A DNA stretch of 59,504 nucleotides from an uncultured Muribaculaceae bacterium. GTDB taxonomy: Bacteria > Bacillota_I > Bacilli_A > RF39 > UBA660. The DNA is taken from NCBI GenBank assembly GCA_964630225.1, contig CAZVUK010000002.1:1-59504 (forward strand), written 5' to 3'. Shown piece after piece: positions 4,424 through 24,894 of the stretch. Every line of letters begins with the position of its first letter. The stretch's first letter is position 1. A program made the translations under genes and the position numbers. The notes below the pieces were generated by a model. The model ran no database searches and was not told where the DNA came from. It saw only the letters and a list, made by a program, of their open reading frames with translations.

Positions 4424-5756
4424 GAATATTGCTCGCGAGCTTAACGGAAAAAAAATAGCGATACTTGGCTTTGGAAGAGAGGGTAAGTCTTCTTATCGTT
4501 TTATTGTCAAACACTGCACGAATGTCGATCTTACGATAATAGATGGAGCAGATATAAGAGAATCATTTACTAAGGAGTTTCCCGAGGGAAATGTCTCTTT
4601 TGTCATTGGTGCTAATTATTTAGATAATTTATCTGTTTACGATATGATAATTAAAACACCGGGCATAAGTCTTAAAGATATAGATATTTCAGCATTCAAA
4701 AGCAAGATAAAGTCACAGCTTGAACTGTTTTTAAAATACTATGGACAGCAAGCTATCGCTATAACTGGAACCAAAGGAAAGAGCACTACAACTTCGCTAA
4801 TCTACGAAATGATTCTTGCTCAAAAAGCCAATACCTTTTTAATGGGTAATATCGGTATTCCAGTCTTTGACAAAATCGAAGAATATGATGAGTCATCGAC
4901 ACTCGTTGTCGAAATCTCGAGTCACCAATTAGAATATTTGGATTACTCTTCGCACATAGGAGTTATTTTAAATCTTTTCGAAGATCACTTAGATAAAGCC
5001 GGTACTCTTGAGAATTATCACAATATTAAGATGAAGCTGTTTAAAAATCAAAAAGAGGGCGATTACGGATTGTATTTTTATGACAATGAAGTTTTAAAAA
5101 ACAAAGTAAGTGAACTTAATTATCCTGGTCATCTTTATGCTTTTTCACTCAAAGAAAAAACTGATATCTATAAAGAAGGTGATAAATACTTCTTTATGGG
5201 AGAGGAAATATACGATAGTAGCGCTTCACGTTTATTACTTGGAGAGCACAACACTATCAATATTGTTTTGGCACTAGCGGTAGTTAAAATACTGGGTCTT
5301 GATAACGAGTTAGCGCGAAATACGGCAGCTAGTTTTAAACCGGTTGAATACCGCAACGAATTTGTTGGTAAATACGACGGAATAAACTTTTATGTCGATA
5401 CTTTAGCTACCATCCCTGAAGCGACGATTGCTAGCTTAAAGGCACTTAAAACCACCGAAACAATTATCTTCGGTGGGATGGATAGAGGCATAGATTATTC
5501 TTCGTTAATAGAGTATTTTAATAATAGCTCTATAACTAACTTTATTTGTATGCCCTCAACTGGTCAAAAGATCGGTAAAGAAATTAAAAGAGGAAATGTT
5601 TATTTTATCGAAAGTCTAAAAGATGCTGTTGTTAAAGCCAAAGAAATAGGTAGTGCAGGATCTATTTGTCTGCTTTCACCAGCCGCAGCAAGTTATGAGT
5701 TTTATAAAGACTATAAAGAGAAGGCCGAGGCTTTCAAGAAGTATATAAAAAAATAA
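4416..5756 (+). CDS. murD: UDP-N-acetylmuramoyl-L-alanine--glutamate ligase (MurD family; context suggests the L-Glu-adding MurD2 type)
   Basis: N-terminal Rossmann motif KKIAILGFGREGKS and Mur-ligase P-loop ITGTKGKSTTT; 446 aa. SD ggagga upstream. Confidence 0.88.
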   Translation: MYENIARELNGKKIAILGFGREGKSSYRFIVKHCTNVDLTIIDGADIRESFTKEFPEGNVSFVIGANYLDNLSVYDMIIKTPGISLKDIDISAFKSKIKSQLELFLKYYGQQAIAITGTKGKSTTTSLIYEMILAQKANTFLMGNIGIPVFDKIEEYDESSTLVVEISSHQLEYLDYSSHIGVILNLFEDHLDKAGTLENYHNIKMKLFKNQKEGDYGLYFYDNEVLKNKVSELNYPGHLYAFSLKEKTDIYKEGDKYFFMGEEIYDSSASRLLLGEHNTINIVLALAVVKILGLDNELARNTAASFKPVEYRNEFVGKYDGINFYVDTLATIPEATIASLKALKTTETIIFGGMDRGIDYSSLIEYFNNSSITNFICMPSTGQKIGKEIKRGNVYFIESLKDAVVKAKEIGSAGSICLLSPAAASYEFYKDYKEKAEAFKKYIKK

Positions 5757-5802
5757 TTGAAAATAATGACACTATATATTATAATATTACAAGTCTGAAA
5801 GG

Positions 5803-7452: not shown

Positions 7453-7488
7453 GTTGCTTCTTTTTCTTTTTAAATATATAATTGTATT

Positions 7489-8784
7489 ATGAAAAAAGAA
7501 AACAAGAGAAAGAAACCCAATACTTTAAATAAAAAACCAGCATCGGGTTTTAAGATTTCTTATTTGATTGTACTTATTCTAATAATCGCTTTAATATCGA
7601 TTACTTTCATTTTATATGGTTATAAAAACAAAACAATTAATGATAAAAAACGTAGTAAAGATGAAGAAATAGCCCATCGCACAGCTATTATAAAAAGTCA
7701 TTATGCCAAGCGTGTATCCTTAGTTAAAGATGCTGATATATATGAAAAAGATGGAAAAAACTTTAATGATATTGGTGATATTTCAAAGGGTTATTTTATA
7801 TCATTAGATGAAGTTGAAATAAACGAAAACACTTTGTATTTCCCTGTAGCGGATAGTAAATATTATTTGAAATATGATACCGTTATTCCGCAGGAAGGAA
7901 TAAATGAATATATAGATTTTAATTACGTTTTATTTAATAAAAATGCCCACGCTAAGGCTGGAGCTCCACTTTATCAAAATGGTAAAGAAGTACTTCGTTA
8001 TAATAAAGAAAAGACTTATCCTATCTTAATTAAAGAAGATGATCACTATATCGTAAAATACCGAGAAGAGTTGTTTAAATTACTTAAAACAGATGTTTCT
8101 AAAACAACTGATGCAAACAATACTAATGAAGCAGTAGCTAGTTCTATTCCAATATTAAATTATCACTTTTTATATGATCACAGTAAAAATGATTATTGCA
8201 GAGAAAGTATCTGCTTGCGTTTAGATTATTTTGAAAGTCATTTAAAATATCTTAAAGACAATGAATTTTACTCTTTAAAGATGGAAGAGATGGCTATGTG
8301 GATGGACAAAAAGATTAGACTACCTAAGAAAAGTGTTGCCATAACCTTCGATGATGGAACTTTAAAAACCGATGAGTATTTACCTGCTAGTTTAGATAAA
8401 TATGAAGTTAATGGCGTCTTATTTCTAGTTACAAGTTGGTTTGATTATAAGATGTTTGCTAGTCCCTATTTAGAAGTTCAATCTCACGGACATAAACTTC
8501 ACGGTATAACGGGTAATACGAGTAAGGGTCTTGCGATGAACGACGAACAAATAGACAAAGATTTTAAAGATTCAATCGCTTCATTAGATGGGGCTGATGA
8601 TGCTTTTGCTTATCCATACTACCAGTATAATAATACGATGTTAAGAGCGGTCAAAGACAACTTTAAAATAGCCTTTATCGGTGGTAACAGAAGAGCAAAA
8701 CAAAGTGACAATAGATATCTATTACCTAGAATTGTTATTTATAGTGGACATGACTTAAAGCGCTTTAAGTCACTCGTTAATTAG
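7489..8784 (+). CDS. Membrane-anchored polysaccharide deacetylase (NodB homology domain)
   Basis: N-terminal TM (ISYLIVLILIIALISITFILYGY). NodB motifs AITFDDGT and QSHGHKLH in the C-terminal half. Confidence 0.8.
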   Translation: MKKENKRKKPNTLNKKPASGFKISYLIVLILIIALISITFILYGYKNKTINDKKRSKDEEIAHRTAIIKSHYAKRVSLVKDADIYEKDGKNFNDIGDISKGYFISLDEVEINENTLYFPVADSKYYLKYDTVIPQEGINEYIDFNYVLFNKNAHAKAGAPLYQNGKEVLRYNKEKTYPILIKEDDHYIVKYREELFKLLKTDVSKTTDANNTNEAVASSIPILNYHFLYDHSKNDYCRESICLRLDYFESHLKYLKDNEFYSLKMEEMAMWMDKKIRLPKKSVAITFDDGTLKTDEYLPASLDKYEVNGVLFLVTSWFDYKMFASPYLEVQSHGHKLHGITGNTSKGLAMNDEQIDKDFKDSIASLDGADDAFAYPYYQYNNTMLRAVKDNFKIAFIGGNRRAKQSDNRYLLPRIVIYSGHDLKRFKSLVN

Positions 8785-8791
8785 GTGAAAC

Positions 8792-9556
8792 ATGAAAGAA
8801 AAGACTAAAATAAGTATTTTGATAAGAAATCTATTGTTTTTAACAATCATTTTAGCGGGAAGCTTCTTTATTTACGATAGAGTCATTCTTCCAACCCTTA
8901 AAGATGAAGAAAAAGTGCCTGTCTTGCAGGAGGCAGAAACTTTTGAAGCCGATGTCGATATGAACTATATATCTGATTTTGTAAACTTCTTTAATAATTC
9001 TTCTTATAATGATTTGGAAGCATATTTTTTCAGGCAAGAGAGTATGAGTGGTAGCCAGGTGAATAATAAAGTCAAAACAAGTATAGCCATAGTAAGACTC
9101 TTAAATACTGAAACCAATGTCATATCAGCAGATGCAGTAAGGCAAGAAGTAAAAAAGATATTTGGTAATAATACGGTATATGAGCCAGTTAGTCCTATCG
9201 TATTAGGATACACAATTAACTATGATAAAGACAATGATAATTTTCATATTATCAATGATGGAAACGTTCCAAAAGAGACAATGGTTTTTACTAAAGTTGC
9301 CGATAGTTTTATAAAAAAAGATAATACTATCGAAATCGAAGTTAAGTTTGCCTATATGAAAGTTACTAGTGAAAACGGAAAATTTCTTATCAAAGTTCAC
9401 AGTGCTATTGAAACAAGTAATTATAATAATTTAGGTTACATTATAGATGGTGAGATAAGTGATGATATGATTCAAACTTTCCCCACCTATATATTTACCT
9501 TTAGCTCAGAAGGAGACAATGTTATCTTTAAATCAGTACATATTAAAAGTAAGTAG
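8792..9556 (+). CDS. Hypothetical membrane-anchored protein
   Basis: 254-aa ORF starting 7 nt after the previous stop, with a single N-terminal TM (LIRNLLFLTIILAGSFFIY). No recognisable motif. Confidence 0.6.
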   Translation: MKEKTKISILIRNLLFLTIILAGSFFIYDRVILPTLKDEEKVPVLQEAETFEADVDMNYISDFVNFFNNSSYNDLEAYFFRQESMSGSQVNNKVKTSIAIVRLLNTETNVISADAVRQEVKKIFGNNTVYEPVSPIVLGYTINYDKDNDNFHIINDGNVPKETMVFTKVADSFIKKDNTIEIEVKFAYMKVTSENGKFLIKVHSAIETSNYNNLGYIIDGEISDDMIQTFPTYIFTFSSEGDNVIFKSVHIKSK

Positions 9557-12754: not shown

Positions 12755-12868
12755 ATGTATATTTGTGATGTATGCGCATTTCAAGTGGAAGGACCAGTTG
12801 CGGAAGGTTATATCTGTCCCGTCTGTGGAGTCGATCATACTCATTTCCATCCTGTAGAAAGTGAGTAA
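12755..12868 (+). CDS. Small rubredoxin-like / zinc-ribbon protein (37 aa)
   Basis: Below the ORF-track size cutoff. SD aaggag (12744-12749), ATG 12755. My translation is MYICDVCAFQVEGPVAEGYICPVCGVDHTHFHPVESE, with two CxxC knuckles (YICDVC ... YICPVCG). Confidence 0.5.
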   Translation: MYICDVCAFQVEGPVAEGYICPVCGVDHTHFHPVESE

Positions 12869-12873
12869 TAAAG

Positions 12874-12966
12874 ATGAACATAAAACTATTTTTATATATC
12901 ATTCTAGCAATCATGGCAATCGCAGCAATTACGCTATTCATCATTGCCAAAAATAAGACAAAATAA
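12874..12966 (+). CDS. Possible 30-aa single-TM micropeptide
   Basis: ATG 12874 lies 5 nt after the previous stop. Translation MNIKLFLYIILAIMAIAAITLFIIAKNKTK. Immediately followed by a terminator. No clear SD of its own. Confidence 0.3.
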   Translation: MNIKLFLYIILAIMAIAAITLFIIAKNKTK

Positions 12967-12990
12967 AGTTGATTATATCAACTTTTTTGT
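12965..12990 (+). terminator. Rho-independent terminator of the trxA unit
   Basis: 9-bp stem aaagttgat / atcaacttt with loop tat, followed by a T-run. Confidence 0.65.
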
Positions 12991-12998
12991 TGGCAATA

Positions 12999-13007
12999 TG
13001 GTATAAT
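12999..13007 (+). promoter_or_regulatory. Candidate extended -10 (TGgTATAAT) for the 13.0-23.3 kb operon
   Basis: tggtataat sits 27 nt upstream of ATG 13034, directly after the terminator. The -35 is weak. Confidence 0.4.
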
Positions 13008-13033: not shown

Positions 13034-13735
13034 ATGGCATATATAGAATTTAATAATGTAGTAAAAGAATATCGTATGGGCGAAGTTGCAATAAGAGCTG
13101 TCGATGAAAGTAGTTTTGCCATCGATAAGGGCGAACTCGTAGTAATCGTCGGTCCAAGTGGAGCGGGAAAGACAACCGCTTTAAACCTTTTAGGAGGCAT
13201 GGATAATGCAAGTAGCGGTCAAATTATTTTTGATGGTGAAGATATAACTGCCTATAATAAGAAGAAGCTGACTCTCTACCGCCGTAACGATATCGGTTTT
13301 GTCTTTCAATTTTATAATCTTGTTCCCAATCTAACAGCGCTTGAAAATGTCGAATTGGCAACTCAAATTAGAAAGAATCACTTAAGTCCTAAAAAAACTT
13401 TGGAAAAAGTCGGTTTAAAAGATCGGATGAACAATTTTCCATCACAGTTATCAGGAGGGGAGCAGCAACGCGTAGCTATAGCTAGAGCCATTGCTAAGAA
13501 TCCTAAACTTTTACTTTGTGATGAACCAACCGGAGCGCTTGATTATGTTACAGGAAAACAGATCCTCAAGCTTTTACAAGATACAGCAAGACAAGAAAAA
13601 ATGACAGTGGTCATAATTACTCACAATACCGCGATTACCCCGATGGCTGATAAAGTAATAAGTTTTAAAAACGGTAAAGTAGAACGCATATCTGTCAATA
13701 TGACTCCAACTTCGATAGAGGAGATCGAGTGGTAA
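13034..13735 (+). CDS. ABC transporter ATP-binding protein (MacB/LolD/FtsE-like)
   Basis: Walker [10 protein letters not shown], signature [14 protein letters not shown], Walker B LLLCDEPT. 233 aa. Confidence 0.9.
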
Positions 13736-16083
13736 TGAATAAAATACTACTTAAAGACACTGCTAGATCGATAAGAAAAAGAATGAAGATTTTTTTATCG
13801 ATAATGATAATGGCTTTTTTAGGAGTCGGTTTTTATTCTGGCTTAAAGATAACAGCCCCTAATATGGCTCTAACGCAGAAGAAGTATTTTGATAAAACTA
13901 ATATGTATGATCTTCAGGTATATACAAAAGAAGGAATCTTTAATAATGAAGATATAGAAAAAATCAAGCAATTAGATGCTTTTAAAGAATATCAAGAAGA
14001 TTTTTCAGTTGATAGTGAGATTAAATTAAATGATAAAAACAAAATAGTTAAGATAATTACTTCAAACGATAAACTTAATAAAGTTATCGCAAGTAAGGGG
14101 AGTAAGACCGTAAAAAAAGGCACAGTCCTTTTAGATAGAATGTTAGCTAAAACGGAAAAAGCTAAAATCGGTGACAAACTTTACTTAAATCATCAATTGT
14201 TTCAAAAAAATGAATATGAAATAATCGGTTTTGTTGATTCACCTCTATATATATCATTAGAGCGAGGGACTACGACAATAGGAACTGGTAAATTAGATGG
14301 TTTCATCTATTTATCCAAAGAAGATTTAACAAATGAAATGGTATCTTCTATATATATATACTTTGAAAAAGACGCGTCTGTTTTTGCCAAGTCTTATAAA
14401 AAACAAATAGCGGAATTTAAAAAAGAAGTTAAAGCTATAAATAAAAATTATATTGTTATGACTAGAAGTGATAACTACGGAGCATCAATATTTGATGATG
14501 ATGTTAAACGCATCTCTAACATTGCCACCCTTTTCCCCGTAATATTTTTTCTAGTTGCAGCACTCATATCACTTACTTCAACCACGAGAATGGTCGAAGA
14601 AGAACGTGTTCAAATAGGAACGCTTAAAGCTCTCGGCTATAAAAATAGTAATATTTTAGCTAAATATGTGACCTTTGCTATGCTCGCTTCATTAATTGGT
14701 GGAACATTAGGTTTTTTAGTGGGTGTTAGAGCCTTACCTATCATGGTCTATTCGATGTATAGAACAATGTATAATATGAAAAATATAGCTTTGTCAAACA
14801 ATATGATTTATCCTTTGCTTGGTACTTTATTTTTAACTGCTTCAGTAGTTGGAGCAACTATTTATTCATGCATGAAAGAACTAAGAATTAAACCAGCTCA
14901 GTTGATGAGACCTAAAGCTCCAAAGCATGGCAAGAGAGTTTTAATTGAAAGATATAAACCGCTTTGGAAAAGATTATCTTTTACTTCAAAAGTAACTTTG
15001 CGTAATCTTTTTCGATATAAGAAAAGATTTGTCATGACTGTCGCCGGAGTTGCTGGTTGTATGTCTTTAATTATCGCTGGTTTTGGTCTTCGCCAATCTG
15101 TTAGTTCAGTTATAATAAGACAGTATGAAGATATCTTTGTCTATAACTTAATGCTTATCAGCAAAAACAAAATCGATACAAGCCAGATGCAATGGATAAA
15201 CGAATATCCAGTATCAACTTACGAAACAGCAAGCAAAAGTTTAATTTTAATCAAAGATAAGAAAAAAGTAAATGATGTTATGCTCTTCACAATTAATCCT
15301 GAATATGATGAGTATATTAAACTTCGTCATAAGAAAAAAGAACTTAAACTAAAAGACGATGAAGTAGCTCTAAGCAAAAAGGCAGCTAGTTTGTTATCAG
15401 TTAAAGCAGGAGATACAATTAAGATAAAAAGTGGCAATGAAGAAAGGTATGTAAAAATAGATCTCATTGTCGATAACTATATACTTCATTACATATATAT
15501 GAGTTCTGACAAGTATGAGTCTATCTTTAGTAAAAAGTTAGGTAATAATGCTTTATTAATTAAATATAATAAGAGCTTAGATGAAAATAAACTCAGTAAA
15601 AAAATCCTCGAAGGAGATAATATTGCTACGCTTCAGTCGATGGCTGAAAACAAGAAAAGTTTAGATGATGTTATGAAAAACTTGAACTATGTAGCTATTA
15701 TTTTAATAGTAGCAGCCGCCGCCTTGGCTCTCGCAGTATTATATACTCTTTCTAACGTCAATATAAGTGAACGTATTAGAGAGGTTGCCACCATCAAAGT
15801 TTTAGGCTTTAAAGATAACGAAGTATATAATTATATAGCCAAAGAAAACACTATTTTAGTAGCTATCGGTATCTTATTTGGAATCATCAGTGGTTACTTT
15901 GTTAACGCCATGATATTAAAAACAGCAGAAATAGATATGATCCTTTTACCTACCGATATACCTTGGTATTATTATCTCTTATCCGTATTGATAACAATTG
16001 TTTTTAGTTATATTGTATCAGTGATGAATTATTTTGCTTTAAAAAAAGTAAATATGATAGAATCACTTAAAAGTGTGGAGTAA
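13735..16083 (+). CDS. ABC transporter permease with duplicated FtsX-type domains and large extracytoplasmic loops
   Basis: TAATG overlap with the ATPase gene. About 782 aa. Two TM bundles (about aa 270-390 and 650-780), each preceded by a large soluble segment, which is the MacB/FtsX-type layout. Confidence 0.85.
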   Translation: MNKILLKDTARSIRKRMKIFLSIMIMAFLGVGFYSGLKITAPNMALTQKKYFDKTNMYDLQVYTKEGIFNNEDIEKIKQLDAFKEYQEDFSVDSEIKLNDKNKIVKIITSNDKLNKVIASKGSKTVKKGTVLLDRMLAKTEKAKIGDKLYLNHQLFQKNEYEIIGFVDSPLYISLERGTTTIGTGKLDGFIYLSKEDLTNEMVSSIYIYFEKDASVFAKSYKKQIAEFKKEVKAINKNYIVMTRSDNYGASIFDDDVKRISNIATLFPVIFFLVAALISLTSTTRMVEEERVQIGTLKALGYKNSNILAKYVTFAMLASLIGGTLGFLVGVRALPIMVYSMYRTMYNMKNIALSNNMIYPLLGTLFLTASVVGATIYSCMKELRIKPAQLMRPKAPKHGKRVLIERYKPLWKRLSFTSKVTLRNLFRYKKRFVMTVAGVAGCMSLIIAGFGLRQSVSSVIIRQYEDIFVYNLMLISKNKIDTSQMQWINEYPVSTYETASKSLILIKDKKKVNDVMLFTINPEYDEYIKLRHKKKELKLKDDEVALSKKAASLLSVKAGDTIKIKSGNEERYVKIDLIVDNYILHYIYMSSDKYESIFSKKLGNNALLIKYNKSLDENKLSKKILEGDNIATLQSMAENKKSLDDVMKNLNYVAIILIVAAAALALAVLYTLSNVNISERIREVATIKVLGFKDNEVYNYIAKENTILVAIGILFGIISGYFVNAMILKTAEIDMILLPTDIPWYYYLLSVLITIVFSYIVSVMNYFALKKVNMIESLKSVE

Positions 16084-16086
16084 ATT

Positions 16087-16950
16087 ATGTTAGAAATTAA
16101 AAAGCTATCTAAATCATATGGAAAAGTCAAAGCTGTAAAAACTATTTCTTTAACTGTCGCAAAGGGTGAAATATTTGGTTTTATCGGTCCTAATGGAGCT
16201 GGTAAATCAACAACTATTAGATCGATTATGAATTTTATTAATAAAGATTCAGGGAAAGTTATTTTCGCTGGTAAAGAGCTCTTAAAAGATGATAAAGAGA
16301 GCTATGAAAAAATTGGTTATCTTCCTTCAGAGCTCAATATATACGACGATATCTTAGTAAGAGATCTTCTTACTTATAATGCATCTTTCTATAAAAAAGA
16401 CACTAAGAAAAAAACTGATGAACTAGTAAAATATCTTGATTTAGACACTAGTAAAAAAGTCGAAGAATTATCATTTGGAAATAAAAAGAAATTAGGTATC
16501 GTAATTGCTTTGATGCATGATCCTGAACTGATTATTATGGATGAACCATCTAACGGACTCGATCCTTTGATGCAAGAAAAGTTCTATGATCTATTAAAAA
16601 AAGAGAAAAAACTTGGTCATACCATTTTCTTCTCATCACACAACCTACTTGAAGTATCGAAAGTATGCGATGAAGTAGCCATCATTAAAAATGGTGAAAT
16701 ATTAGTCAAAGAAGATATGAAAAAGTTTATGAAAAGTAAGATAGTAACTATTAAAAGCAGTGACTTAACAAGACTTCCTCAAAGCCTTATAAAAAACATA
16801 ATACATGAAGAAGCTAATGTTCTAACTTTTCCATATTCTGGCCCTTATAACGACCTATTAGAAAAATTAAGTAAAATAAAAATAGATGATATCAAAATAG
16901 AAGAACCGTCGCTCGAAGATATGTTTTTATCTTATTATAAGGAGGATTAA
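16087..16950 (+). CDS. ABC transporter ATP-binding protein (ABC-2 subfamily type)
   Basis: Walker A GPNGAGKST, signature-like SFGNKKKLGIVIAL, Walker B LIIMDEPSNGLD. Confidence 0.88.
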   Translation: MLEIKKLSKSYGKVKAVKTISLTVAKGEIFGFIGPNGAGKSTTIRSIMNFINKDSGKVIFAGKELLKDDKESYEKIGYLPSELNIYDDILVRDLLTYNASFYKKDTKKKTDELVKYLDLDTSKKVEELSFGNKKKLGIVIALMHDPELIIMDEPSNGLDPLMQEKFYDLLKKEKKLGHTIFFSSHNLLEVSKVCDEVAIIKNGEILVKEDMKKFMKSKIVTIKSSDLTRLPQSLIKNIIHEEANVLTFPYSGPYNDLLEKLSKIKIDDIKIEEPSLEDMFLSYYKED

Positions 16951-17742
16951 ATGTTTAAAAGAGAATTTAAAGTAAATTTCAAATCATTACTTATATGGAC
17001 TGGGGTTATATGTGCTTTATTTTTACTTGTTTATTTAGTTTATCCTAGTATGAGTGATGCCATGAAAGAAGGAGGAATGGATGACCTCTTAAAAGCCTTT
17101 CCTGAAGATATCTTAAAATCTTTCAATATGGATATCATTGCTATCGATACAGCATTTGGTTGGTATAAGACCGAAGGTTATGTCTTTCTCTTGCTGATTG
17201 GTGGTATTTATTCAGCAATGCTTGGAGCTAACATCTACCTAAAAGAAGAAAATGATAAAACAATTGATTTTCTCCTTGCTAAACCGATAAAACGAAAAGA
17301 TATTTTAATCGCAAAAATACTTTGTGGCATTAGCAACATAAGCATTCTTATTGCGATTACAACAATCTTTAACTACTTTGGATTATTATTTAACGGGGAC
17401 TTTGATCAGAAAGTATTCTTTATTGCCTCGATTGCTCCGATCCTAATTTTCTATTCACTTTTTTCAGTAAGTCTATTCATCTCGAGCTTCTTTAGAAGAA
17501 ACAAAAGTGCTGTCAGTCTTTCTATTGGAATAGTATTTATGACATATATTTTTCAAATGATAGGTAATTTATCAGATAAATATTCCTTTCTAAAAAACAT
17601 ATCCTTTTTTGAACTTTCTCCGATAAGATACATAGTATTAAATAGACAATTACCGCTTAGAAATGTTATAATTACTTTAATAATAATGATAATATTTTTT
17701 GGAGCCAGTTATTATAGATATAGCAAAAAAGAATTTATGTAG
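16951..17742 (+). CDS. ABC-2-type transporter permease
   Basis: Starts 1 nt after the ATPase stop. 263 aa with about 6 TM segments. Confidence 0.75.
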   Translation: MFKREFKVNFKSLLIWTGVICALFLLVYLVYPSMSDAMKEGGMDDLLKAFPEDILKSFNMDIIAIDTAFGWYKTEGYVFLLLIGGIYSAMLGANIYLKEENDKTIDFLLAKPIKRKDILIAKILCGISNISILIAITTIFNYFGLLFNGDFDQKVFFIASIAPILIFYSLFSVSLFISSFFRRNKSAVSLSIGIVFMTYIFQMIGNLSDKYSFLKNISFFELSPIRYIVLNRQLPLRNVIITLIIMIIFFGASYYRYSKKEFM

Positions 17743-17749
17743 GTGATTT

Positions 17750-18808
17750 ATGTTTCTATCAGTTTGTACTAATTCAAATCTTTTAAGTGTAATCAGTGTA
17801 GTAAAGTTCTTACTTGATTTAATATGTACGGTAATTCCCATTATTTTAATTATAATGGTAACTTTCGACATAGCTAAAATTGTAATCAGTCCTGATGAGA
17901 AAACGATGTCAGGAGCATCATCTGCTCTTGCCAGAAGAATGATTGCAGCGGCAGCTATTTTCTTTGTTCCTATTTTTGTTAATATTATTACAACTAGAGC
18001 AGAAAAGACAAACTATAATAATACTTCTTGTTGGAAGAATGCCAATACTGTGTCTATTGAACGATTTTCCGCTTTAGAAAAAGAAGCTAAAAAAACAGAA
18101 GAGTTAAAACTAAAAACAGCAAAAGAAGAAGCAAAAGCCATCAGAGAAACGCTCGATAAAGAAAGAGAAAACGAGCGATTAAAGGCCGAGGCTAAAGCTA
18201 AAGACGAAGCATCAAGAGCTTCGGCTACTACGCCGGTAGCGACGCCTGCGACAAACACAAGTAATTATGACCTATTAGCTTCTAGAAATAAAATTAAATA
18301 TTATTATCAAACTGATTATCTAGGTGAGCCTTACGGTAATATAAAACATAAAACGATGGTTTCAAGTGGATGTGGTCCAACTTCGGTTGCCGTCGTTGCA
18401 ACAGCTTTTCTTGGCGAAGCCGGAAACGATCCAATAACGGTCAAAAATTGGATATGTAAACAAGGTGGTTGTTCTAATAATGGTACATACTGGCAACAGA
18501 TGAAAGATTATCTTACTAACAGAGGTCTTAAAGTAGAAGCGATATGGAACAAAACGGCTAATGTCAATACAAGCTTTAGAAATGCCCTTGCTGATAACGC
18601 CCTAATCATTATTCTAGTTAGAGATAATGGTCATTGTTCTAACGAATTCACTAGTGGAGGACATTACTTTGTTCTTACTGGTCTAACAAGTGATGGAAAG
18701 GTCGAAATAGCCGAAGTAAATAGTCGTTCTCGCACTGCAAGAAAATGGAATATGTCTGAACTTACTAGATGTATGAATTCGGCAACGATAGTAAGAGGTA
18801 GGTCATGA
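17750..18808 (+). CDS. Cassette 1 hydrolase: 2-TM N-terminal module, coiled coil, and C39-like (Peptidase_C39_2-type) cysteine peptidase domain
   Basis: N-terminus MFLSVCTNSNLLSVISVVKFLLDLICTVIPIILIIMVTFDIAKIV, then a second TM and an SCWKNAN motif. K/E-rich linker KEAKKTEELKLKTAKEEAKAIRETLDKERENERLKAEAKAK. C-terminal motifs YYQTDY...SSGCGPTSVAVVATAF...GGHYFVLTG. Confidence 0.78.
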   Translation: MFLSVCTNSNLLSVISVVKFLLDLICTVIPIILIIMVTFDIAKIVISPDEKTMSGASSALARRMIAAAAIFFVPIFVNIITTRAEKTNYNNTSCWKNANTVSIERFSALEKEAKKTEELKLKTAKEEAKAIRETLDKERENERLKAEAKAKDEASRASATTPVATPATNTSNYDLLASRNKIKYYYQTDYLGEPYGNIKHKTMVSSGCGPTSVAVVATAFLGEAGNDPITVKNWICKQGGCSNNGTYWQQMKDYLTNRGLKVEAIWNKTANVNTSFRNALADNALIIILVRDNGHCSNEFTSGGHYFVLTGLTSDGKVEIAEVNSRSRTARKWNMSELTRCMNSATIVRGRS

Positions 18809-19428
18809 AAAAAACACTTATATTATCAGTTATACTTTTACTTACAGCTTGCAATGTAGATTATAGAGTAAAATATATAGATGGTAAATTTACCGAGTCA
18901 GCAGTAATTAGCTTACAACTTGATGAAAACTCTGAGACGATGGAAAAAATATCCGGTGGTAATTCCGGAAAAATATTTAAAAATGAAGATGATATTCCCT
19001 ATAATGTTAAATTTTCAACTAATAACAAAATAGAGACACTTGAACTAAATAAGTTTTATGAAAGTAGTAGTTTTCTTAAAACAAGAGCTATTAAGTGTTT
19101 TGAGTATAGTGATGTAAATGAAAGCGATGATTATTATATAATTAGATTATGGGGGGGAATAGGTAAATGTCAGTATGTCGATACAGTTAAATTTACTTTT
19201 GAAACTAATATGGATGTTTATCAGACCAATGCTCATGAAGTTAATATAGATAAGGGCAAATATATATGGAACAATGTAGATGATGGTATAGAAATACAAG
19301 TAAGCAAGAACTTTACAAAAAAAGACACCGAAAAAACAAATACCCCCTTGAGGTTTTTTATAGTTCTTATTGTAACAGCAGTAGCCACGATCATCATCGT
19401 CTTTAAATTAAAGAAAGATAGGGATTAG
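18805..19428 (+). CDS. Cassette 1 lipoprotein with an additional C-terminal TM anchor
   Basis: ATGA overlap with the upstream gene. Lipobox LLLTAC. C-terminal RFFIVLIVTAVATIIIVFKLKKDRD. Paralog of 20428-21051 and 22659-23309. Confidence 0.75.
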   Translation: MKKTLILSVILLLTACNVDYRVKYIDGKFTESAVISLQLDENSETMEKISGGNSGKIFKNEDDIPYNVKFSTNNKIETLELNKFYESSSFLKTRAIKCFEYSDVNESDDYYIIRLWGGIGKCQYVDTVKFTFETNMDVYQTNAHEVNIDKGKYIWNNVDDGIEIQVSKNFTKKDTEKTNTPLRFFIVLIVTAVATIIIVFKLKKDRD

Positions 19429-19436
19429 GAGGAAAT

Positions 19437-20426
19437 ATGTTTTTAACAGTATGTGAAAGCTCAAGTTTATTAAATTTAATTAGTTTGGTTAAAAGTTTAT
19501 TAGAAATTATAACTACTATAATACCAATCGTATTAATACTTATGATAACGTTTGATTTATCGAAGTTAGTTATCGATGTTGATGAAAAAACGAAGCAAGC
19601 AATTACTAAAAAAGTAATTAACAGATCGATTGCGGCTGTGGCAGTGTTTTTTATTCCTACTTTGGTAAACGTTTTTACCAATCGTTTAGGACAACAAAGT
19701 TATTCGCAGATGACTTGTTGGACAAATGCGACAACTGAAAAAATAGCAAGATACACCGCTAAAGAAGAGGAAGCCAAAGCTCTAGAACAAGAAAAAATTA
19801 CGATAGCCAAAGGTGAAGCAGCAATTGAAAGAGCCCTAGTCGAGCAAGAACGTGAAAAAGCTCGTAAAATAGCCGAGGAAAAAGCAGCGTCGGTAAAAAA
19901 TAGAATTAAACCGTACTTCCAAACAGATTATCCACATCTACCATATAATCCATATAACACAGCGATGTGTGGCTCTATGGCTGGTTGTGCATGCGGCTTA
20001 ACATCAGTGGCAGTTGTAGCCACAGCTTTTAATGGTGAAGCCGGAAACGATCCAGTATCAGTTAGAAATTGGATATGTAAGACTGGATCATGCACTGACT
20101 CAGGAACAGCTTGGGCGGGAATGATTTCTTATCTTCGACAAGGAGGATTAAACGTAACTGAAGTTCAGTATACAAATTCTCCAGAAAGAATAATGAACTC
20201 TCTTAGAAGCGGAAGAGAACTAATTATACCTTTATATCATAACAATGGTTCTTGCGATACACCATTCACAACCGGTGGTCACTACTTTGTTTTAACCGGA
20301 ATTGCTACCAATGGTGAAATTGAAATAGTCCAAGTATCAAGCAGACGTCAGACGGCTCAAACATGGCCTATAAGTACAATCACAAAATGTATGAATGGTG
20401 CTATTTACGTATCGAAAGGAGCATAA
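19437..20426 (+). CDS. Cassette 2 hydrolase: 2-TM module, coiled coil, C39-like cysteine peptidase
   Basis: N-terminus MFLTVCESSSLLNLISLVKSLLEIITTIIPIVLILMITFDLSKLV, then TCWTNAT. E/K-rich linker. C-terminal motifs YFQTDY...GCACGLTSVAVVATAF...GGHYFVLTG. Confidence 0.78.
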   Translation: MFLTVCESSSLLNLISLVKSLLEIITTIIPIVLILMITFDLSKLVIDVDEKTKQAITKKVINRSIAAVAVFFIPTLVNVFTNRLGQQSYSQMTCWTNATTEKIARYTAKEEEAKALEQEKITIAKGEAAIERALVEQEREKARKIAEEKAASVKNRIKPYFQTDYPHLPYNPYNTAMCGSMAGCACGLTSVAVVATAFNGEAGNDPVSVRNWICKTGSCTDSGTAWAGMISYLRQGGLNVTEVQYTNSPERIMNSLRSGRELIIPLYHNNGSCDTPFTTGGHYFVLTGIATNGEIEIVQVSSRRQTAQTWPISTITKCMNGAIYVSKGA

Positions 20427-20427
20427 T

Positions 20428-21051
20428 ATGAAAAAGAAATTAATATTATTAATTGGACTGTTACTCCTCACGGCTTGTGATGTCGATTACCATTTTTCTT
20501 ACAAAAAAGGAGTCTTTAGTGAAAAAGTCACTTTCTCTGAAGAAGCAAATCCTGCGATAGACAATTTTGAAAAAAGATTTGGACCAGTAGATGGAGATTC
20601 CTTCAAACATGGAACAGAGCGATACAAAGCAAGATATAGAAATGAAGGGAATATGAATTATTTAGACCTTTCCTTTACTTACGATAATATGTCGTTTAAA
20701 GAATCAAAAATATTTAAATGCTTTGATTACTCGACTTTTGAAGATGAAAAAGATTATTATTCAATTAGATTATCGGGTAATACGGCAATGTGTCCATATA
20801 TTAATAAGGTATCAGTAACGTTTGAAACCGATAGGGAAGTACTTACAACTAATGCAACAAAGCAAGATACTAAAAACGGTATATATAAATGGGATACACT
20901 TGATAAAGGAATTGAACTACAAATAAGTAAGACCTTTGCTTTAAACCAAAAAGAATCGAGTACTATGCCAATAAGATTTATTGCGATTGCTGTTACTGTT
21001 CTACTTGGTGCAGCTTTTGTCTTTCTAAGAAAGAGGCAGCAAAATGACTAA
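20428..21051 (+). CDS. Cassette 2 lipoprotein with C-terminal TM anchor
   Basis: SD aaaggagc, ATG 20428 (the tracked ORF starts at 20395). Lipobox LLLTAC, conserved CDVDY. C-terminal TM IRFIAIAVTVLLGAAFVFLRKRQQ. Confidence 0.75.
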   Translation: MKKKLILLIGLLLLTACDVDYHFSYKKGVFSEKVTFSEEANPAIDNFEKRFGPVDGDSFKHGTERYKARYRNEGNMNYLDLSFTYDNMSFKESKIFKCFDYSTFEDEKDYYSIRLSGNTAMCPYINKVSVTFETDREVLTTNATKQDTKNGIYKWDTLDKGIELQISKTFALNQKESSTMPIRFIAIAVTVLLGAAFVFLRKRQQND

Positions 21052-21706
21052 GAAAAAATTAAGCATCATATATGAAGATAACGATATTTTAGTAGTTAAT
21101 AAACCGTCTAATTTACTGAGTATTTCGACTGACAACGAAAAAGAAAAAACACTTTTCCATGAAGCATTTACTTATATCAAAGCTAAAAATAAAAATAATA
21201 AAATATTTATCGTTCATAGACTGGATAAAGGCACTAGTGGACTGCTTGTCTTTGCTAAAAGTGAAGCGATAAAGAAAACACTTCAGGATAATTGGGAAAC
21301 GATTGTTAAACTAAGACAATATGTAGCAATCGTCGAAGGTGTTCCGCAAAAACAAAGCGATCGTATTCTTAACTATTTAAAAGAAACTAAAACATTATTG
21401 GTTTATGAAAGTAATAAAAAAGATGGTAAGTTGGCAATTACTAATTATCGAACGATAGCGACGAATGGTAATTTTACGCTCTTAGCAATCGAACTAGAAA
21501 CGGGTCGTAAAAATCAAATCAGAGTACATATGGCTGGAATAGGTCATCCTATTATTGCCGATAAAAAGTATGGTTCAAAAACAAATCCAATTAGACGTAT
21601 GGGACTTCATGCCAATAAGTTAATTATCGAGCACCCACGCACAAAAAAAGAGATGATTTTTGAAACCGATATTCCAAATCAATTCTTAAGTTTAATAAAC
21701 AGTTAG
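21044..21706 (+). CDS. RluA-family pseudouridine synthase (no S4 domain)
   Basis: Catalytic motif HRLDKGTSGLLVFAK and GRKNQIRVH. 220 aa. Overlaps the preceding lipoprotein gene by 8 nt. Confidence 0.85.
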   Translation: MTKKKLSIIYEDNDILVVNKPSNLLSISTDNEKEKTLFHEAFTYIKAKNKNNKIFIVHRLDKGTSGLLVFAKSEAIKKTLQDNWETIVKLRQYVAIVEGVPQKQSDRILNYLKETKTLLVYESNKKDGKLAITNYRTIATNGNFTLLAIELETGRKNQIRVHMAGIGHPIIADKKYGSKTNPIRRMGLHANKLIIEHPRTKKEMIFETDIPNQFLSLINS

Positions 21707-21716
21707 GAGGTAAAAT

Positions 21717-22655
21717 ATGAAATATCTTACATTTTGTGAAGAACCAGCAGTCTTAAGTACAATTAGTTTTGTTAAAACGATAATTGATTTTATAACAATT
21801 ATCGTTCCGGTAATTTTGATCCTATTAATGGCTATTGAGATAGCTAAAATAGTTATTAATCCCGACGAGAAATTGACAAGACAAGTTTTTAAATCGATTA
21901 CTAATAAAATGTTAGCAACGGCTACCATATACTTTATTCCTATTATTGTCAGTCTTCTTATGTCGATGATTCAAGTTGATTATCAAAAAAACTCTTGTTG
22001 GCTTAACTCTACTGATGATGGAATAGCTTCGGCAAAAATAAAAGCTGAGGCATATAATGAAGCCAATTATAAAAGTATTTTTACTGAAAAAGAAAATGCC
22101 AAAATCGAACGTGAACGTATTGCCAAAGAACGTGAGAAAGCTCGCCTAGAGGCAGAGAAAAAAGCAAAGTCAAGTGATGCAAGTTTTGGTGTTAGAACTG
22201 TTCCGCCAACACCAAATGATTATTACTATACATACTATAGAGGTCTGGTTAGTCAGTGTCCTTGGTATGCAATAGCAAGGGCTATGGAGATAGTATCGGG
22301 ATCTAACCTTTCTGAAGCAGATAAAGAAAGAAAGCTTGCATATCTTTATGATACTCATGGAAATGGCAAAGAAATTTTTGGAATAATAAAAAATAGAGGT
22401 ACATTTCCGGTAGGTCAAGAACCTAGAGCACCAGCAATTTTAACATATGGTGGAAGTTTGACCAAATATGGTCATGTCGCTATACTTGAGAAAATAGAAA
22501 ATGGAGTTGCAACCATAACCGATAGCCGTAACAAAAATGGAGCCGATGCAACTAATGGTTGGCATGCAGTTGACTGGAGAACAAGAACTATGTCAATTTC
22601 AGAAATGGAAAATTGGATGTATATCTTTCAAGGTTATGTCTATATTTTGGAGTAG
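21717..22655 (+). CDS. Cassette 3 hydrolase: the same 2-TM module and coiled coil, but with a CHAP-domain amidase/peptidase
   Basis: N-terminus MKYLTFCEEPAVLSTISFVKTIIDFITIIVPVILILLMAIEIAKIV, then SCWLNST. Linker KENAKIERERIAKEREKARLEAEKKAK. CHAP Cys/His motifs QCPWYAIARA and GHVAILEKI. Confidence 0.78.
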   Translation: MKYLTFCEEPAVLSTISFVKTIIDFITIIVPVILILLMAIEIAKIVINPDEKLTRQVFKSITNKMLATATIYFIPIIVSLLMSMIQVDYQKNSCWLNSTDDGIASAKIKAEAYNEANYKSIFTEKENAKIERERIAKEREKARLEAEKKAKSSDASFGVRTVPPTPNDYYYTYYRGLVSQCPWYAIARAMEIVSGSNLSEADKERKLAYLYDTHGNGKEIFGIIKNRGTFPVGQEPRAPAILTYGGSLTKYGHVAILEKIENGVATITDSRNKNGADATNGWHAVDWRTRTMSISEMENWMYIFQGYVYILE

Positions 22656-22658
22656 TAT

Positions 22659-23309
22659 ATGAAAAATAAAAAAATATTGTTAATTATAGTTATTCTATTT
22701 ATGACAGCTTGTCAAACTAATTATTCTCTCAAGTACGACGGAAGCAATTTAGAAGAAACAATATCTGCAAGTGGGATAAGTGAAGAAGATATGCTTGAAG
22801 GAAGTTTTCCATTATCAAGTTTAGAAGATAAACAAGTAAAGCTTTTTCCTGATAGTAAAACTAACTTCGAACAAAATTATATTGTTGATGAAAATATGTA
22901 TACCATCACATATAAAGCGAAACATAACTTGGACAGCTTCTCTAAAGAGAGTTATCTAAACAATTGTTTTGATAAAGTAAAAACCATTAAAGGCGACAAT
23001 ACTTTTTACATTTCAGCGTATCGCGATAATTCAAATGGTCGTTGTTTCCAAAAAAACTCACTGGCAAAATTTATAACGGATTACGAAGTATTATCATCAA
23101 ATGCTGATAGAAAAGAAGGCAACAGCTATATATGGGATGTTGATAAGCACGCTAATGGTATAGAAATAATGATAAATACAAGTAAGTTAACTAATGAAAA
23201 AAGCACGCCATTTTTAGGGGTAGGACTGTTTAAAATAATATTTGCTATCGTAATTGTAGTCTTACTTGTACCTACTTACATAATACTAAAAAAGAAAGTC
23301 GAAGATTAA
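22659..23309 (+). CDS. Cassette 3 lipoprotein with C-terminal TM anchor
   Basis: Lipobox LFMTAC. C-terminal TM FKIIFAIVIVVLLVPTYIILKKK. Shares the ...C(F)...YY.IR/...W(D/N)...GIE(I/L)(Q/M)I pattern with the other two lipoproteins. Confidence 0.72.
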   Translation: MKNKKILLIIVILFMTACQTNYSLKYDGSNLEETISASGISEEDMLEGSFPLSSLEDKQVKLFPDSKTNFEQNYIVDENMYTITYKAKHNLDSFSKESYLNNCFDKVKTIKGDNTFYISAYRDNSNGRCFQKNSLAKFITDYEVLSSNADRKEGNSYIWDVDKHANGIEIMINTSKLTNEKSTPFLGVGLFKIIFAIVIVVLLVPTYIILKKKVED

Positions 23310-23310
23310 A

Positions 23311-23337
23311 AAGATATATGAAACTATATCTTTTTTT
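23311..23337 (+). terminator. Rho-independent terminator ending the 13.0-23.3 kb operon
   Basis: 8-bp stem aagatata / tatatctt with loop tgaaac, followed by a T-run. It is the first convincing terminator after 12990. Confidence 0.7.
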
Positions 23338-23362: not shown

Positions 23363-24010
23363 ATGTTAGTAACAAATTTAAGCTTTAGAGATTTGGATAA
23401 AAAATGGGTCCTAATCGAAAATAAAAAGCAAATTAAAAAACTTGTTAAAAAACTCAAGATTGCTAAAACCAAAGATCCACTCATAGCATATTTTTTTGTC
23501 GACCAAGAAGATGGCTTTTGTATGAAAGTAATAGGAAATGTCTTTAAAGATGAAAAAGATAATCTCTTTTTGGAAGATGATTATATCTATGAAGATAAGC
23601 ATATCAATTATGCTGAAATACTAAAGTACGAACTAACTATTTTAGATAATAAAATAACTAATTATATAAAGGGTATTAAAAGTGTCGAAGGATCAACTGG
23701 TCTTATCATCGATGACAAACTTAAACTAAAAGAAACGAGAGTTATGACCAATATCGATCCTTTTAGAAATGATGCTTATCCTGACGATATCGAAGTTCTT
23801 TTAAAAGTAAAAGAAGATGAAGAGTATCTTTGGGCTAGAATAGAGGGTGTAATGCGTGAAGATGTCCTGATATGTAGACTTTTAACCGGATCGGAATTAT
23901 CACCTGAAAAACACGCCGAAGGAGAGTTGATCGGAGTTCGGTACAAGAAAGATGAAGAAAATGAAACACTTGAAATAGTCGGTCTTTTAAAACCAAAGAA
24001 AAACAGTTAA
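23363..24010 (+). CDS. Hypothetical cytoplasmic protein (215 aa)
   Basis: Long ORF in coding-like sequence with no TM and no recognisable motif. SD gtaggtga precedes ATG 23363. Confidence 0.55.
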   Translation: MLVTNLSFRDLDKKWVLIENKKQIKKLVKKLKIAKTKDPLIAYFFVDQEDGFCMKVIGNVFKDEKDNLFLEDDYIYEDKHINYAEILKYELTILDNKITNYIKGIKSVEGSTGLIIDDKLKLKETRVMTNIDPFRNDAYPDDIEVLLKVKEDEEYLWARIEGVMREDVLICRLLTGSELSPEKHAEGELIGVRYKKDEENETLEIVGLLKPKKNS

Positions 24011-24441: not shown

Positions 24442-24894
24442 ATGGCAGTAAGTGGAACTACAGAAACAATTAATACAGAATTAAGAGATAGTTTACAACA
24501 AAACATAACTGAAAAAGTTGATACATTTAAGACAACCGTTGGCACAAATCCATATGGACTTTGGGCGAGCTCAGGAGCACTAGCTGGAGTTACTCCTTTG
24601 ATGGGTACAAAAATTGTTACCGCTCTAGAAGATTATAAAACAAACTTGGAACTTGCCCTTAAAAAAATGACCAGCCCGGATATTAATAAAGGATTTAAGG
24701 GTGCAAAATTAGAGGCTTCGCTTAAAACATTTGTCGATTCTGTAATAGCAGAAGCACAAGCATACATCAATCATTTGGTTTTTGCACAAAATCAAATAAT
24801 TTGGAGTGTTAAACAGCCGTATGGTATTCAAATTGAAGCAGTTGCTAGTTCAGTTACAAGTGACGCATCTTTTGGATCTACAACCACAAGCTAA
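24442..24894 (+). CDS. Hypothetical helical protein (150 aa), possibly a T7SS-associated substrate or partner
   Basis: Strong SD ataggagga, 9 nt after the WXG-like stop. Predicted helical, with a Ser/Thr-rich tail. No motif recognised. Confidence 0.6.
   Translation: MAVSGTTETINTELRDSLQQNITEKVDTFKTTVGTNPYGLWASSGALAGVTPLMGTKIVTALEDYKTNLELALKKMTSPDINKGFKGAKLEASLKTFVDSVIAEAQAYINHLVFAQNQIIWSVKQPYGIQIEAVASSVTSDASFGSTTTS

Follow-up and report, generated by a model that had tools for sequence, protein, structure and literature searches.

The question raised by contig CAZVUK010000002.1, of which 59,504 nucleotides (nt) were analysed (the window), is whether eleven tightly packed genes on its + strand (g1-g11, positions 13034-23309) make up a single functional system. 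A preliminary description of this DNA proposed that they do, with the ATP-binding cassette (ABC) transporter g1-g2, possibly together with the second transporter g3-g4, acting as a mechanotransmitter that switches on three coiled-coil hydrolases (g5, g7 and g10) in the manner of FtsEX with PcsB, CwlO, RipC or EnvC. The explanation favoured here, with a probability of about 0.6, is that the cluster is a composite transcription unit, set apart by a two-gene module that it contains in three paralogous copies. Each copy would consist of a wall hydrolase carried on a pilin-like hairpin related to type IV secretion systems (T4SSs) and an LppM-like lipoprotein, and would serve local wall remodelling.

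The three hydrolase genes are built alike. In g5 (paralogue A, 17750..18808, + strand, 352 aa), a pilin-like hairpin of two transmembrane (TM) helices (17750-18064) is followed by a charged helical stalk (18059-18208), a Thr/Pro-rich linker and a Peptidase_C39_2 domain (18290-18700; E 2.1e-10, 41.8 bits, gathering score 24) with conserved catalytic Gln, Cys and His motifs (YYQTD, CGPTS and GGHYF). The hairpin (19437-19751) and stalk (19734-19883) of g7 (paralogue B, 19437..20426, +, 329 aa) lead to a second Peptidase_C39_2 domain (19908-20315; 2.8e-5, 25.2 bits, gathering score 24), and this protein also matched T4SS_pilin at 1.1e-5. The third gene, g10 (paralogue C, 21717..22655, +, 312 aa), has its hairpin at 21717-22031, its stalk at 22014-22163 and a CHAP domain at 22242-22517 (1.7e-7, 32.0 bits, gathering score 26; motifs SQCPWY and YGHVAI). 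From the N-terminus onwards, all three encode a tail with an invariant Cys, two TM helices with a net-positive loop, a second invariant Cys within a CW-N-A motif 5' of the stalk, the stalk itself (50 residues, 50-60% of them K, E, R or D) and a papain-like domain. Each of these domains scored above threshold and kept its catalytic Cys and His, as expected of a papain fold, and the catalytic Gln, Cys and His were invariant in the hydrolase alignments. The charged helical stretch that had been placed between a membrane module and a CHAP or C39-like domain is therefore present in all three hydrolases, and the domains that the preliminary description had proposed to assign with hidden Markov models (HMMs), namely FtsX, MacB_PCD, CHAP and Peptidase_C39_2, were all recovered by Pfam. 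An AlphaFold2 model of g7 with a predicted local distance difference test score (pLDDT) of 80 placed residues 100-151 in a single long helix and gave the papain-like domain with confidence. Its best fold matches in the PDB were papain-like, including staphopain and the C39 domain of PCAT1, and PcsB was not a significant structural match of the model (E 1.5). Searches of PDB sequences with hydrolase, lipoprotein and hairpin profiles returned nothing useful.

The N-terminal two-TM hairpin of the first gene of the module is referred to as the N-module, and proteins of at least 250 aa that carry it at their N-terminus are referred to as fused. Close homologues were rare in a word-indexed database. 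A HMMER scan with the three N-modules returned 4,890 clusters of 50% identity at E <= 1e-3 and 772 at E <= 1e-10, and the top 150 matches were mostly proteins of 290-430 aa with the module at the N-terminus. Genome and metagenome scans together yielded 104 loci anchored on the N-module (cited by number, L001 and so on), which hold 61 fused genes. Among 102 fused representatives, the C-terminal domain was CHAP in 21, NlpC/P60 in 10, the endolysin-like ELLD in 7, C39_2 in 7, M15_4/VanY in 7, GDSL in 6, M23 in 3 and Glucosaminidase in 2, while Amidase_3 and S11/S13 were also found; YkuD occurred as a catalytic domain on the N-module in related loci. It is mainly because the catalytic domain interchanges with established wall-enzyme domains in homologues that g5, g7 and g10 are assigned a role on the wall. 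By their domain content, all three are very probably peptidoglycan hydrolases that act outside the cytoplasm, are tethered to the membrane and have lipoproteins of their own, as had been supposed before. MurD/MurL, a polysaccharide deacetylase and a glucosaminidase are encoded by the organism, which consequently has a cell wall.

Across the 102 diverse fused sequences, two Cys were the sole invariant columns. They correspond to residues 6/7 (before the first TM helix) and 94 (after the second) of g5, g7 and g10, and in g5 they are encoded at nt 17765-17767 and 18029-18031. Pilin-only proteins have the same pair, and cleavable signal peptides are present in some of them. Its conservation suggests a disulfide that would link both extracytoplasmic tails.

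Because C39 peptidases classically accompany ABC exporters, the C39-like domains could alternatively be leader-peptide proteases, and the cluster a locus for the processing, export and immunity of a bacteriocin or another peptide, with ABC transporters that export the product or protect the producer. The PCAT1 domain among the structural matches is in keeping with this, as is a resemblance of g1 to TIGR03608, a putative bacteriocin-export ATPase family, at a score below the cut-off. The C39 domains of PCAT transporters are cytoplasmic, however, whereas that of g5 and g7 is predicted to lie outside the cell because it is C-terminal to an N-out/C-out hairpin and a stalk. The domain is also interchangeable with CHAP, NlpC/P60, amidase and carboxypeptidase domains in homologues, most loci have the pair but no ABC genes, and no candidate for a precursor-peptide gene was seen in the cluster, in which ORFs (open reading frames) below 60 aa were not scanned. 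A peptide-processing locus is thus considered highly improbable.

The second gene of each module encodes a lipoprotein: g6 (partner lipoprotein A, 18805..19428, +, 207 aa) with lipobox LLTAC and Cys16, g8 (partner lipoprotein B, 20428..21051, +, 207 aa) with the same layout, and g11 (partner lipoprotein C, 22659..23309, +, 216 aa), whose orthologue follows the CHAP paralogue in L005. In all three, the lipobox precedes a beta-rich domain in which 2 Cys are conserved, and a TM helix with a basic tail forms the C-terminus. The top PDB match of an AlphaFold2 model of g8 (pLDDT 76.5, built from 5 sequences) was LppM (Rv2171) of M. tuberculosis (2nc8; E 3.9e-5, TM-scores 0.48/0.57). LppM has a signal peptide with a lipobox, a folded domain of ~160 residues and a C-terminal TM segment (PMC5217060), and the best structural match is therefore also one of matching layout. 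Sequence similarity between the g6/g8/g11 family and LppM was not detectable, and a plasmid search with the lipoprotein gave no match. LppM has been studied for its effects on macrophage uptake and has no known role as a hydrolase partner, unlike the role proposed here for the partner lipoprotein.

Hydrolase and partner recur together. Two partner families were distinguished: c1, the lipoprotein family of g6, g8 and g11, and c13, whose members have a single N-terminal TM helix. Of the 57 fused genes that could be assessed, 37 have a c1 or c13 partner next to them. Uncultured gut Bacilli carry further copies of the module, in neighbourhoods that were otherwise unrelated and of housekeeping type; these included genes for a CobW GTPase, a histidine kinase, DNA ligase (LigA), ValRS and HlyIII, and in Erysipelotrichaceae-like metagenome-assembled genomes the module is inserted between mltG(yceG)-yrrM and U32 peptidase genes. 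As far as gene neighbourhoods can tell, the conserved unit is the hydrolase-lipoprotein pair and not an ABC-hydrolase operon.

The architecture would also suit polymorphic toxin-immunity systems: the N-terminus is conserved while the C-terminal enzyme varies, a small membrane protein is encoded by the adjoining gene, and paralogous pairs lie in tandem. The N-module would then be a trafficking domain, the enzymes wall-degrading toxins aimed at neighbouring bacteria and perhaps delivered by a T4SS or a type VII secretion system (T7SS) encoded elsewhere, and the lipoprotein an immunity protein; in L001, a cluster with an EssC-type T7SS ATPase lies directly 3' of one module. The partner family nevertheless tracks the lineage of the N-module (in 41 of 44 nearest neighbours), not the catalytic fold, with c1 paired to at least 5 unrelated catalytic groups (C39_2, CHAP, Amidase_3, M15_4 and one unknown) and c13 to several. 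This pattern fits a scaffold or regulator that recognises the hairpin or the stalk better than it fits an immunity protein. Release from the producer is made unlikely by the two-TM hairpin, no secretion ATPase was found in the window by tblastn, and in T4SS clusters the pair occupies the place of a self-acting VirB1-type hydrolase. Toxin-immunity pairs are accordingly judged quite unlikely.

Both halves of the module have homologues in the T4SS clusters of monoderms, since a hydrolase gene followed by a lipoprotein gene was found there along with pilin-like genes. Against the Pfam family T4SS_pilin (PF18895), g7 scored 25.8 bits, just under the gathering score of 26.6, and g5 and g10 were not reported by Pfam at E <= 0.01. 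Homologues in L011, L022, L024, L028 and L041 scored 26.6-29.7 bits, and 25 of the 102 fused representatives matched the family at E <= 1e-3. The N-module HMM itself found T4SS-cluster proteins of 104-161 aa at 1e-15 to 1e-30, which adjoin TrbL/VirB6, VirB4-like and VirD4 genes in these relatives, not in the window. Hairpin-only proteins of ~110 aa are carried by many loci, often as arrays. The gene order in L019 (Clostridium sp. CAG:710) is pilin-like genes, a TrbL/VirB6-like gene, a VirB4-like ATPase, a 611-aa CHAP hydrolase, a c1 lipoprotein and VirD4. Its lipoprotein was found with a c1 model built without it (hmmsearch, 6.8e-29), and its hydrolase was matched by the CHAP domain of g10 at E 1.5e-8. 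The order is the same in L030, L032 and L043, where the hydrolases are of the NlpC/P60 or M15_4 type. In addition, g10 matched NCBIfam families of transmembrane proteins from Mycoplasma integrative and conjugative elements (ICEs) at 2.7e-6 and 4.9e-4. The preliminary description had recognised a membrane module in the hydrolases but overlooked both its likeness to T4SS pilins and the T4SS homologues of the two module parts.

Two known groups of T4SS proteins are closest to this arrangement. VirB1-type hydrolases have an N-terminal membrane anchor and use extracytoplasmic CHAP, NlpC/P60 or muramidase-type domains to open the wall locally (PMC12857230). An anchor followed by an extracytoplasmic wall enzyme is common to PrgK of pCF10, TraG of pIP501, Orf14 of Tn916, CwlT of ICEBs1 and the window hydrolases, and the hydrolases of the L019, L030, L032 and L043 clusters likewise precede a lipoprotein of the g6/g8/g11 family. 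The window modules differ in that they have no VirB4, VirD4, VirB6 or relaxase context, lie among housekeeping genes and are triplicated, in that the enzyme is fused to a VirB2-like hairpin of two helices as its anchor, and in that each protein has one catalytic domain. With the VirB2/TrbC-like pilins of Patescibacteria T4SSs (PF18895), the window N-modules have in common a two-TM hairpin of ~70-100 residues, and in related loci small paralogue arrays of this kind adjoin VirB6 and VirB4 genes. The window domain is the N-terminal anchor of an enzyme, in contrast to a free pilin, and no pilus is implied.

Some T4SS clusters among the related loci deserve description in their own right. Between 1 and 5 small VirB2-like genes (PF18895) lie 5' of VirB6-/VirB4-like genes in L019 (6311-19768) and also in L011, L012, L018, L030, L032, L037, L040, L042 and L043. 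These clusters belong to uncultured gut Bacilli and Clostridium sp. CAG:710, and some of them also encode larger proteins with a C-terminal hairpin. According to reviews, Gram-positive T4SSs are without VirB2 homologues, Patescibacteria excepted (PMC12102498; PMC12857230). A plasmid search with g7 recovered C39_2 catalytic domains only. One of them is in a 678-aa protein annotated as a C39 family peptidase on C. botulinum plasmids; in L046 (plasmid p12/29, 3176-9828) its gene lies directly 3' of a DUF87 (VirB4-like) gene and a gene for an 864-aa hypothetical protein. This gene content suggests that on clostridial plasmids, too, C39_2 domains may act as the wall hydrolases of T4SSs.

Within the window, VirB4, VirD4 and VirB6 of L019 and EssC of L001 had no tblastn match over the whole length, and the genes that flank the cluster are housekeeping genes. 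The modules are therefore chromosomal and detached from any transfer apparatus. A degenerate ICE in the window was considered and rejected, as the same four tblastn queries gave nothing, and a prophage or endolysin origin was rejected for want of meaningful PHROGs matches.

Taken together, the proposed course of events is as follows. The first protein would be anchored by its two-helix hairpin, which has homology to VirB2-like T4SS_pilin proteins of monoderm conjugation systems, is predicted to be N-out/C-out and is probably stapled by a disulfide between the invariant Cys of its two extracytoplasmic tails. The single charged helix of ~50 residues would form a stalk, ~7-8 nm long if extended, which holds a Cys-His papain-fold domain (C39_2 in two copies, CHAP in one) that is expected to cut peptidoglycan stem peptides or the MurNAc-L-Ala bond. 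The lipoprotein, held in the membrane by its N-terminal lipid and its C-terminal helix, would dock with its LppM-like beta-rich domain on the hairpin or the stalk and so position or gate the enzyme. The chromosomal modules are probably descended from, or related to, the 'wall hydrolase + lipoprotein' and 'pilin-like' parts of conjugative T4SSs in the same group of bacteria, and would now act in local, membrane-proximal wall remodelling, and the two ABC transporters and the RluA enzyme of the cluster would be co-located neighbours in this lineage. A functional link between ABC transporter and hydrolases is possible. A more far-reaching version would see the modules as a domesticated monoderm T4SS sub-assembly in which hairpins oligomerise, the lipoprotein gates and g1-g2 activates the enzymes mechanically by ATP; by analogy, the Cys staple would act much as in the cyclised T-pilin, and the wall-cutting domains would sit on stalks of 7-8 nm. 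This version is rather unlikely. If true, autolysins that are controlled by an ABC transporter, embedded in the membrane and assembled from parts of a conjugation system would form a new class, serving growth or division in uncultured gut Bacilli.

The transporter genes make up the first part of the cluster. An ABC ATPase of the MacB/LolD/FtsE-like group is encoded by g1 (13034..13735, +, 233 aa; ABC_tran 2.7e-35), and a fused-dimer type VII ABC permease by g2 (13735..16083, +, 782 aa; FtsX 8.5e-28 in 2 stretches, MacB_PCD 2.3e-7). The topology map of g2 shows 2 x 4 TM segments with two FtsX domains and two extracytoplasmic domains of ~200 aa each (residues ~40-256 and 453-645). The third gene, g3 (16087..16950, +, 287 aa), encodes a DrrA-like ABC ATPase (ABC_tran 1.4e-25, DrrA1-3_C 1.6e-4), and g4 (16951..17742, +, 263 aa) an ABC-2 permease with 6 TM segments (ABC2_membrane_2 3.4e-29). 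The combination of ABC_tran, two FtsX domains and MacB_PCD assigns g1-g2 to the type VII (MacB-type) transporters, and a DrrA-like ATPase with a 6-TM ABC-2 permease is the composition of an ABC-2 exporter, so that domain searches agree with the MacB/FtsX-type and ABC-2 transporters described earlier. FtsE orthology was not supported, as g1 reached 197.3 bits against TIGR02673 where the NCBIfam cut-off is 264.85. It scored higher against LolD and DevA than against FtsE, below those cut-offs too, and stayed below every NCBIfam equivalog cut-off. For g2, NCBIfam gave no FtsX equivalog match, and its fused double unit departs from the FtsX layout of one 4-TM unit, ~300 aa and one extracytoplasmic domain. 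By these profile comparisons, g1 and g2 are type VII (MacB-type) components and not FtsE/FtsX orthologues. Their family is very large, with more than 7,900 members at E <= 1e-20, and elsewhere the pair stands alone, beside ClpB, MutS or other genes.

All eleven ORFs and ten junctions were found where the preliminary description had placed them. The gaps from g1 to g11 measure -1, 3, 0, 7, -4, 8, 1, -8, 10 and 3 nt, values that depend on internal ATGs at 13735 and 20428 instead of the longest ORFs. The junctions lie at 13733-13737 (TAATG), 16083/16087, 16950/16951, 17742/17750, 18805 (ATGA), 19428/19437, 20426/20428, 21044-21051 (an 8-nt overlap), 21706/21717 and 22655/22659. Outside the cluster, 12 of 36 same-strand junctions in the window are 11 nt or shorter; since so few are that short, ten in a row are far from chance (p ~2e-5, assuming that junctions are independent). 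The single strand of the cluster genes was confirmed as well, and it carries little weight because 50 of the 53 window genes are on the + strand. An AT-rich hairpin with a T-run precedes the cluster (12957..12991, +; -10.3 kcal/mol, z-score -3.4 against shuffles) and is a putative terminator of the thioredoxin/small-ORF unit, and a similar one at the 3' end (23308..23335, +; -7.8 kcal/mol, z-score -3.2) is the putative terminator of the cluster. The claim that terminators occur only at the flanks holds in so far as both hairpins exist; being AT-rich, they fall below the criteria of the consensus scan, which did not list them. That scan gave four + strand terminator-like matches inside the cluster, all weak and all within coding sequence. 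An extended -10-like element, TGGTATAAT (12999-13007, +), was read by eye 3' of the upstream hairpin.

Tight packing does not by itself tie these functions together. The ninth gene, g9 (21044..21706, +, 220 aa), which was absent from the preliminary description as an identified gene, encodes an RluA-family pseudouridine synthase (PseudoU_synth_2 2.4e-32; TIGR00005 7.9e-52), a cytoplasmic housekeeping enzyme that lies inside the cluster. Its presence in the same tight cluster shows that packing in this compact genome joins unrelated functions, and co-location therefore does not imply a shared one. An RluA gene near the module was also found in L001, L004, L005, L006, L050 and L051. A promoter-like site in the 3' end of g4 (17643..17672, +; TAGACA-18-TATAAT with TG, 11/12 matches) is the best + strand match in the region and lies 78 nt 5' of g5. 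Both hexamers are identical in L005, where the spacer differs, and the site is not conserved in L050. It was for this reason not accepted as proof that g5-g11 are transcribed separately.

Whether the transporter controls the hydrolases depends in part on how often they occur together. The g2-family HMM was too specific for this purpose, and FtsX-type genes in the anchored loci were found by jackhmmer with FtsX domains. Only 4 of the 61 fused genes have an FtsX-type gene nearby, leaving 57 of 61 with none. Operonic linkage to ABC genes was confined to the window's own clade, L055, L005 and L050. The first of these equals the window at strain level, and dN/dS against it was uninformative, with just 17 differences across 10.3 kb; L005 is too diverged for the same comparison. 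L005 has the ABC linkage but is without the g5-g6 pair. In L050, where g2 is 51% identical, two ABC genes are followed by a lipoprotein, a C39 gene, a split C39 gene, a lipoprotein, RluA and a CHAP-type gene. L004, L006 and L051, at similar RluA divergence, have the module and RluA, and the ABC genes are absent. In a second clade (L029, which equals L100, and L053), the ABC gene that lies ~1 kb from a pilin-anchored enzyme is a different one, of a fused MacB type; the enzyme is a YkuD protein in L029/L100 and an M15_4 protein with a c1 lipoprotein in L053. The fused MacB-type genes of L029 and L053 are 65% identical to each other, their arrangements differ, another gene intervenes between ABC and enzyme genes in both, and in L053 the ABC gene is on the opposite strand. 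The 4/4 FtsX-type genes in 1.05 Mb of anchored flanks all lie at most 3 kb from an N-module gene (p ~0.04, or ~0.09 after dereplication, with 476 kb within 3 kb and 570 kb beyond). Such clustering is weakly suggestive of a non-random arrangement and does not show coupling. The absence of any linkage to FtsX-type transporters in homologous cassettes, which the preliminary description had named as evidence against its model, was at any rate not observed, as L055/L005/L050, L029/L100 and L053 are linked.

Two features of these linked loci touch other subjects. The split C39-type gene of L050 (6358-6813 and 7095-7412) consists of a 151-aa ORF with the hairpin and stalk and a 105-aa ORF with the C-terminal piece (GGHY), and is probably a pseudogene because the region of the catalytic Cys is missing. 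L005 (CAYZRY010000008.1) shares 20 kb of synteny with the window, and its proteins are 67-94% identical to those of Bacilli-type genes; titled uncultured Muribaculaceae bacterium, it is probably a mis-binned or mislabelled contig.

Several observations nevertheless speak for control of the hydrolases by the transporter. The permease g2 combines FtsX and MacB_PCD domains with two large extracytoplasmic domains, the hydrolases have a helical stalk, and the linkage described above is kept in L055, L005 and L050, with a MacB-type gene close to pilin-anchored enzymes in the second clade. With FtsEX-PcsB, -CwlO, -RipC and -EnvC the window shares a type VII ABC transporter and hydrolases in which a helical element accompanies a CHAP or NlpC/P60-type domain. 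The genes for known partners of FtsEX often lie away from ftsEX, so that missing synteny does not refute coupling; in the window lineage, transporter and hydrolases are encoded together. A parallel is offered by the YtrBCDEF operon of B. subtilis, which encodes two ABC ATPases, ABC-2-like membrane proteins and a MacB_PCD+FtsX protein, and whose overexpression thickens the wall, leading its authors to speculate on wall-enzyme control through the FtsX-like domain (PMC8060467). The likeness to g1-g4 lies in operon content, and the ytr operon is without hydrolases. Against such control stand the 57 fused genes without an FtsX-type neighbour, the failure of g1 and g2 as FtsE/FtsX equivalogs and the fused double unit of g2, the size of their family and its independence elsewhere, the RluA gene in the same cluster, the strong promoter-like site just 5' of g5, and the intervening genes and opposite strand in the second clade. 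PcsB, moreover, was no structural match; the partners of FtsEX are secreted proteins with a multi-helix coiled coil, whereas in the window the hydrolases are integral to the membrane and have one helix of 50 residues. Of the FtsEX-like system first proposed, the hydrolases, the lipoproteins and a type VII ABC transporter stand, and the FtsE/FtsX identity, the PcsB fold and a general linkage do not. Mechanical switching by g1-g2 is accordingly held to be doubtful.

Some of the results also weigh against the preferred reading, namely three T4SS-related hydrolase-lipoprotein modules with co-located ABC genes. The PF18895 matches lie at or just under the gathering score, and the hairpin of the g7 model is of low confidence (pLDDT 50-72). 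The LppM match is moderate (TM-score ~0.5), with a model from 5 sequences only. C39_2 is not experimentally established as a wall hydrolase, and the modelled fold alone would fit a protease equally. Finally, the 7-nt junction of g4 and g5 is kept in three genomes although g2 identity falls to as low as 51%, and together with the position of all four FtsX-type genes within 3 kb this means that the ABC genes may be more than bystanders.

Further genes of the window lie around the cluster. Between the thioredoxin gene and g1 are two small + strand ORFs, one rubredoxin-like with two CxxC pairs (12756-12868) and one short and hydrophobic (12874-12965); in L055 a 37-aa gene was called at this place. 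A 215-aa protein without a family match is encoded 3' of the terminator hairpin (23363-24010, +) and follows the module and RluA in the window, L001, L004, L005 and L006 at 39-74% identity. Also 3' of the cluster, a 150-aa protein (24442-24894, +) has a 48% identical homologue that ends the L001 gene cluster at 2680-9057. That cluster lies between RluA and DeoD and opens with the gene for a 1,394-aa FHA+FtsK_SpoIIIE ATPase of EssC-like type (type VII secretion) together with five small ORFs, and the window is without the ATPase. A 543-aa protein (30819-32450, +) has a sortase domain in its last 165 residues only, and the three ORFs 3' of its gene, of 544, 226 and 367 aa, gave no Pfam match. 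Two paralogues of ~1,310 aa (41186-45127 and 47498-51427, +) each combine an N-terminal type IV pilin methylation motif (N_methyl) with a thrombospondin type-1 domain and 5-6 Listeria-Bacteroides repeats. Small ORFs without family matches follow both genes, and their GC content of 0.38-0.40 is above that of the rest of the window.

Wall hydrolases tethered to the membrane are already known, as are those associated with T4SSs. In the literature searched, no description was found of a VirB2-like hairpin as the anchor for a range of wall enzymes, nor of its pairing with a conserved, doubly anchored lipoprotein, nor of its presence at a distance from secretion systems. If the ABC link is real, the idea of FtsEX mechanotransmission would extend to integral-membrane hydrolases. 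The interest of the locus nonetheless lies less in its operon than in a widespread and apparently undescribed architecture, and in the VirB2-like genes carried by T4SS clusters of gut Bacillota, a feature that reviews treat as absent outside Patescibacteria. Because the N-module is found in 4,890 clusters and its best matches are mostly fusions, N-module fusions may be a main way in which small-genome gut Bacilli, a poorly studied group, position their autolysins.

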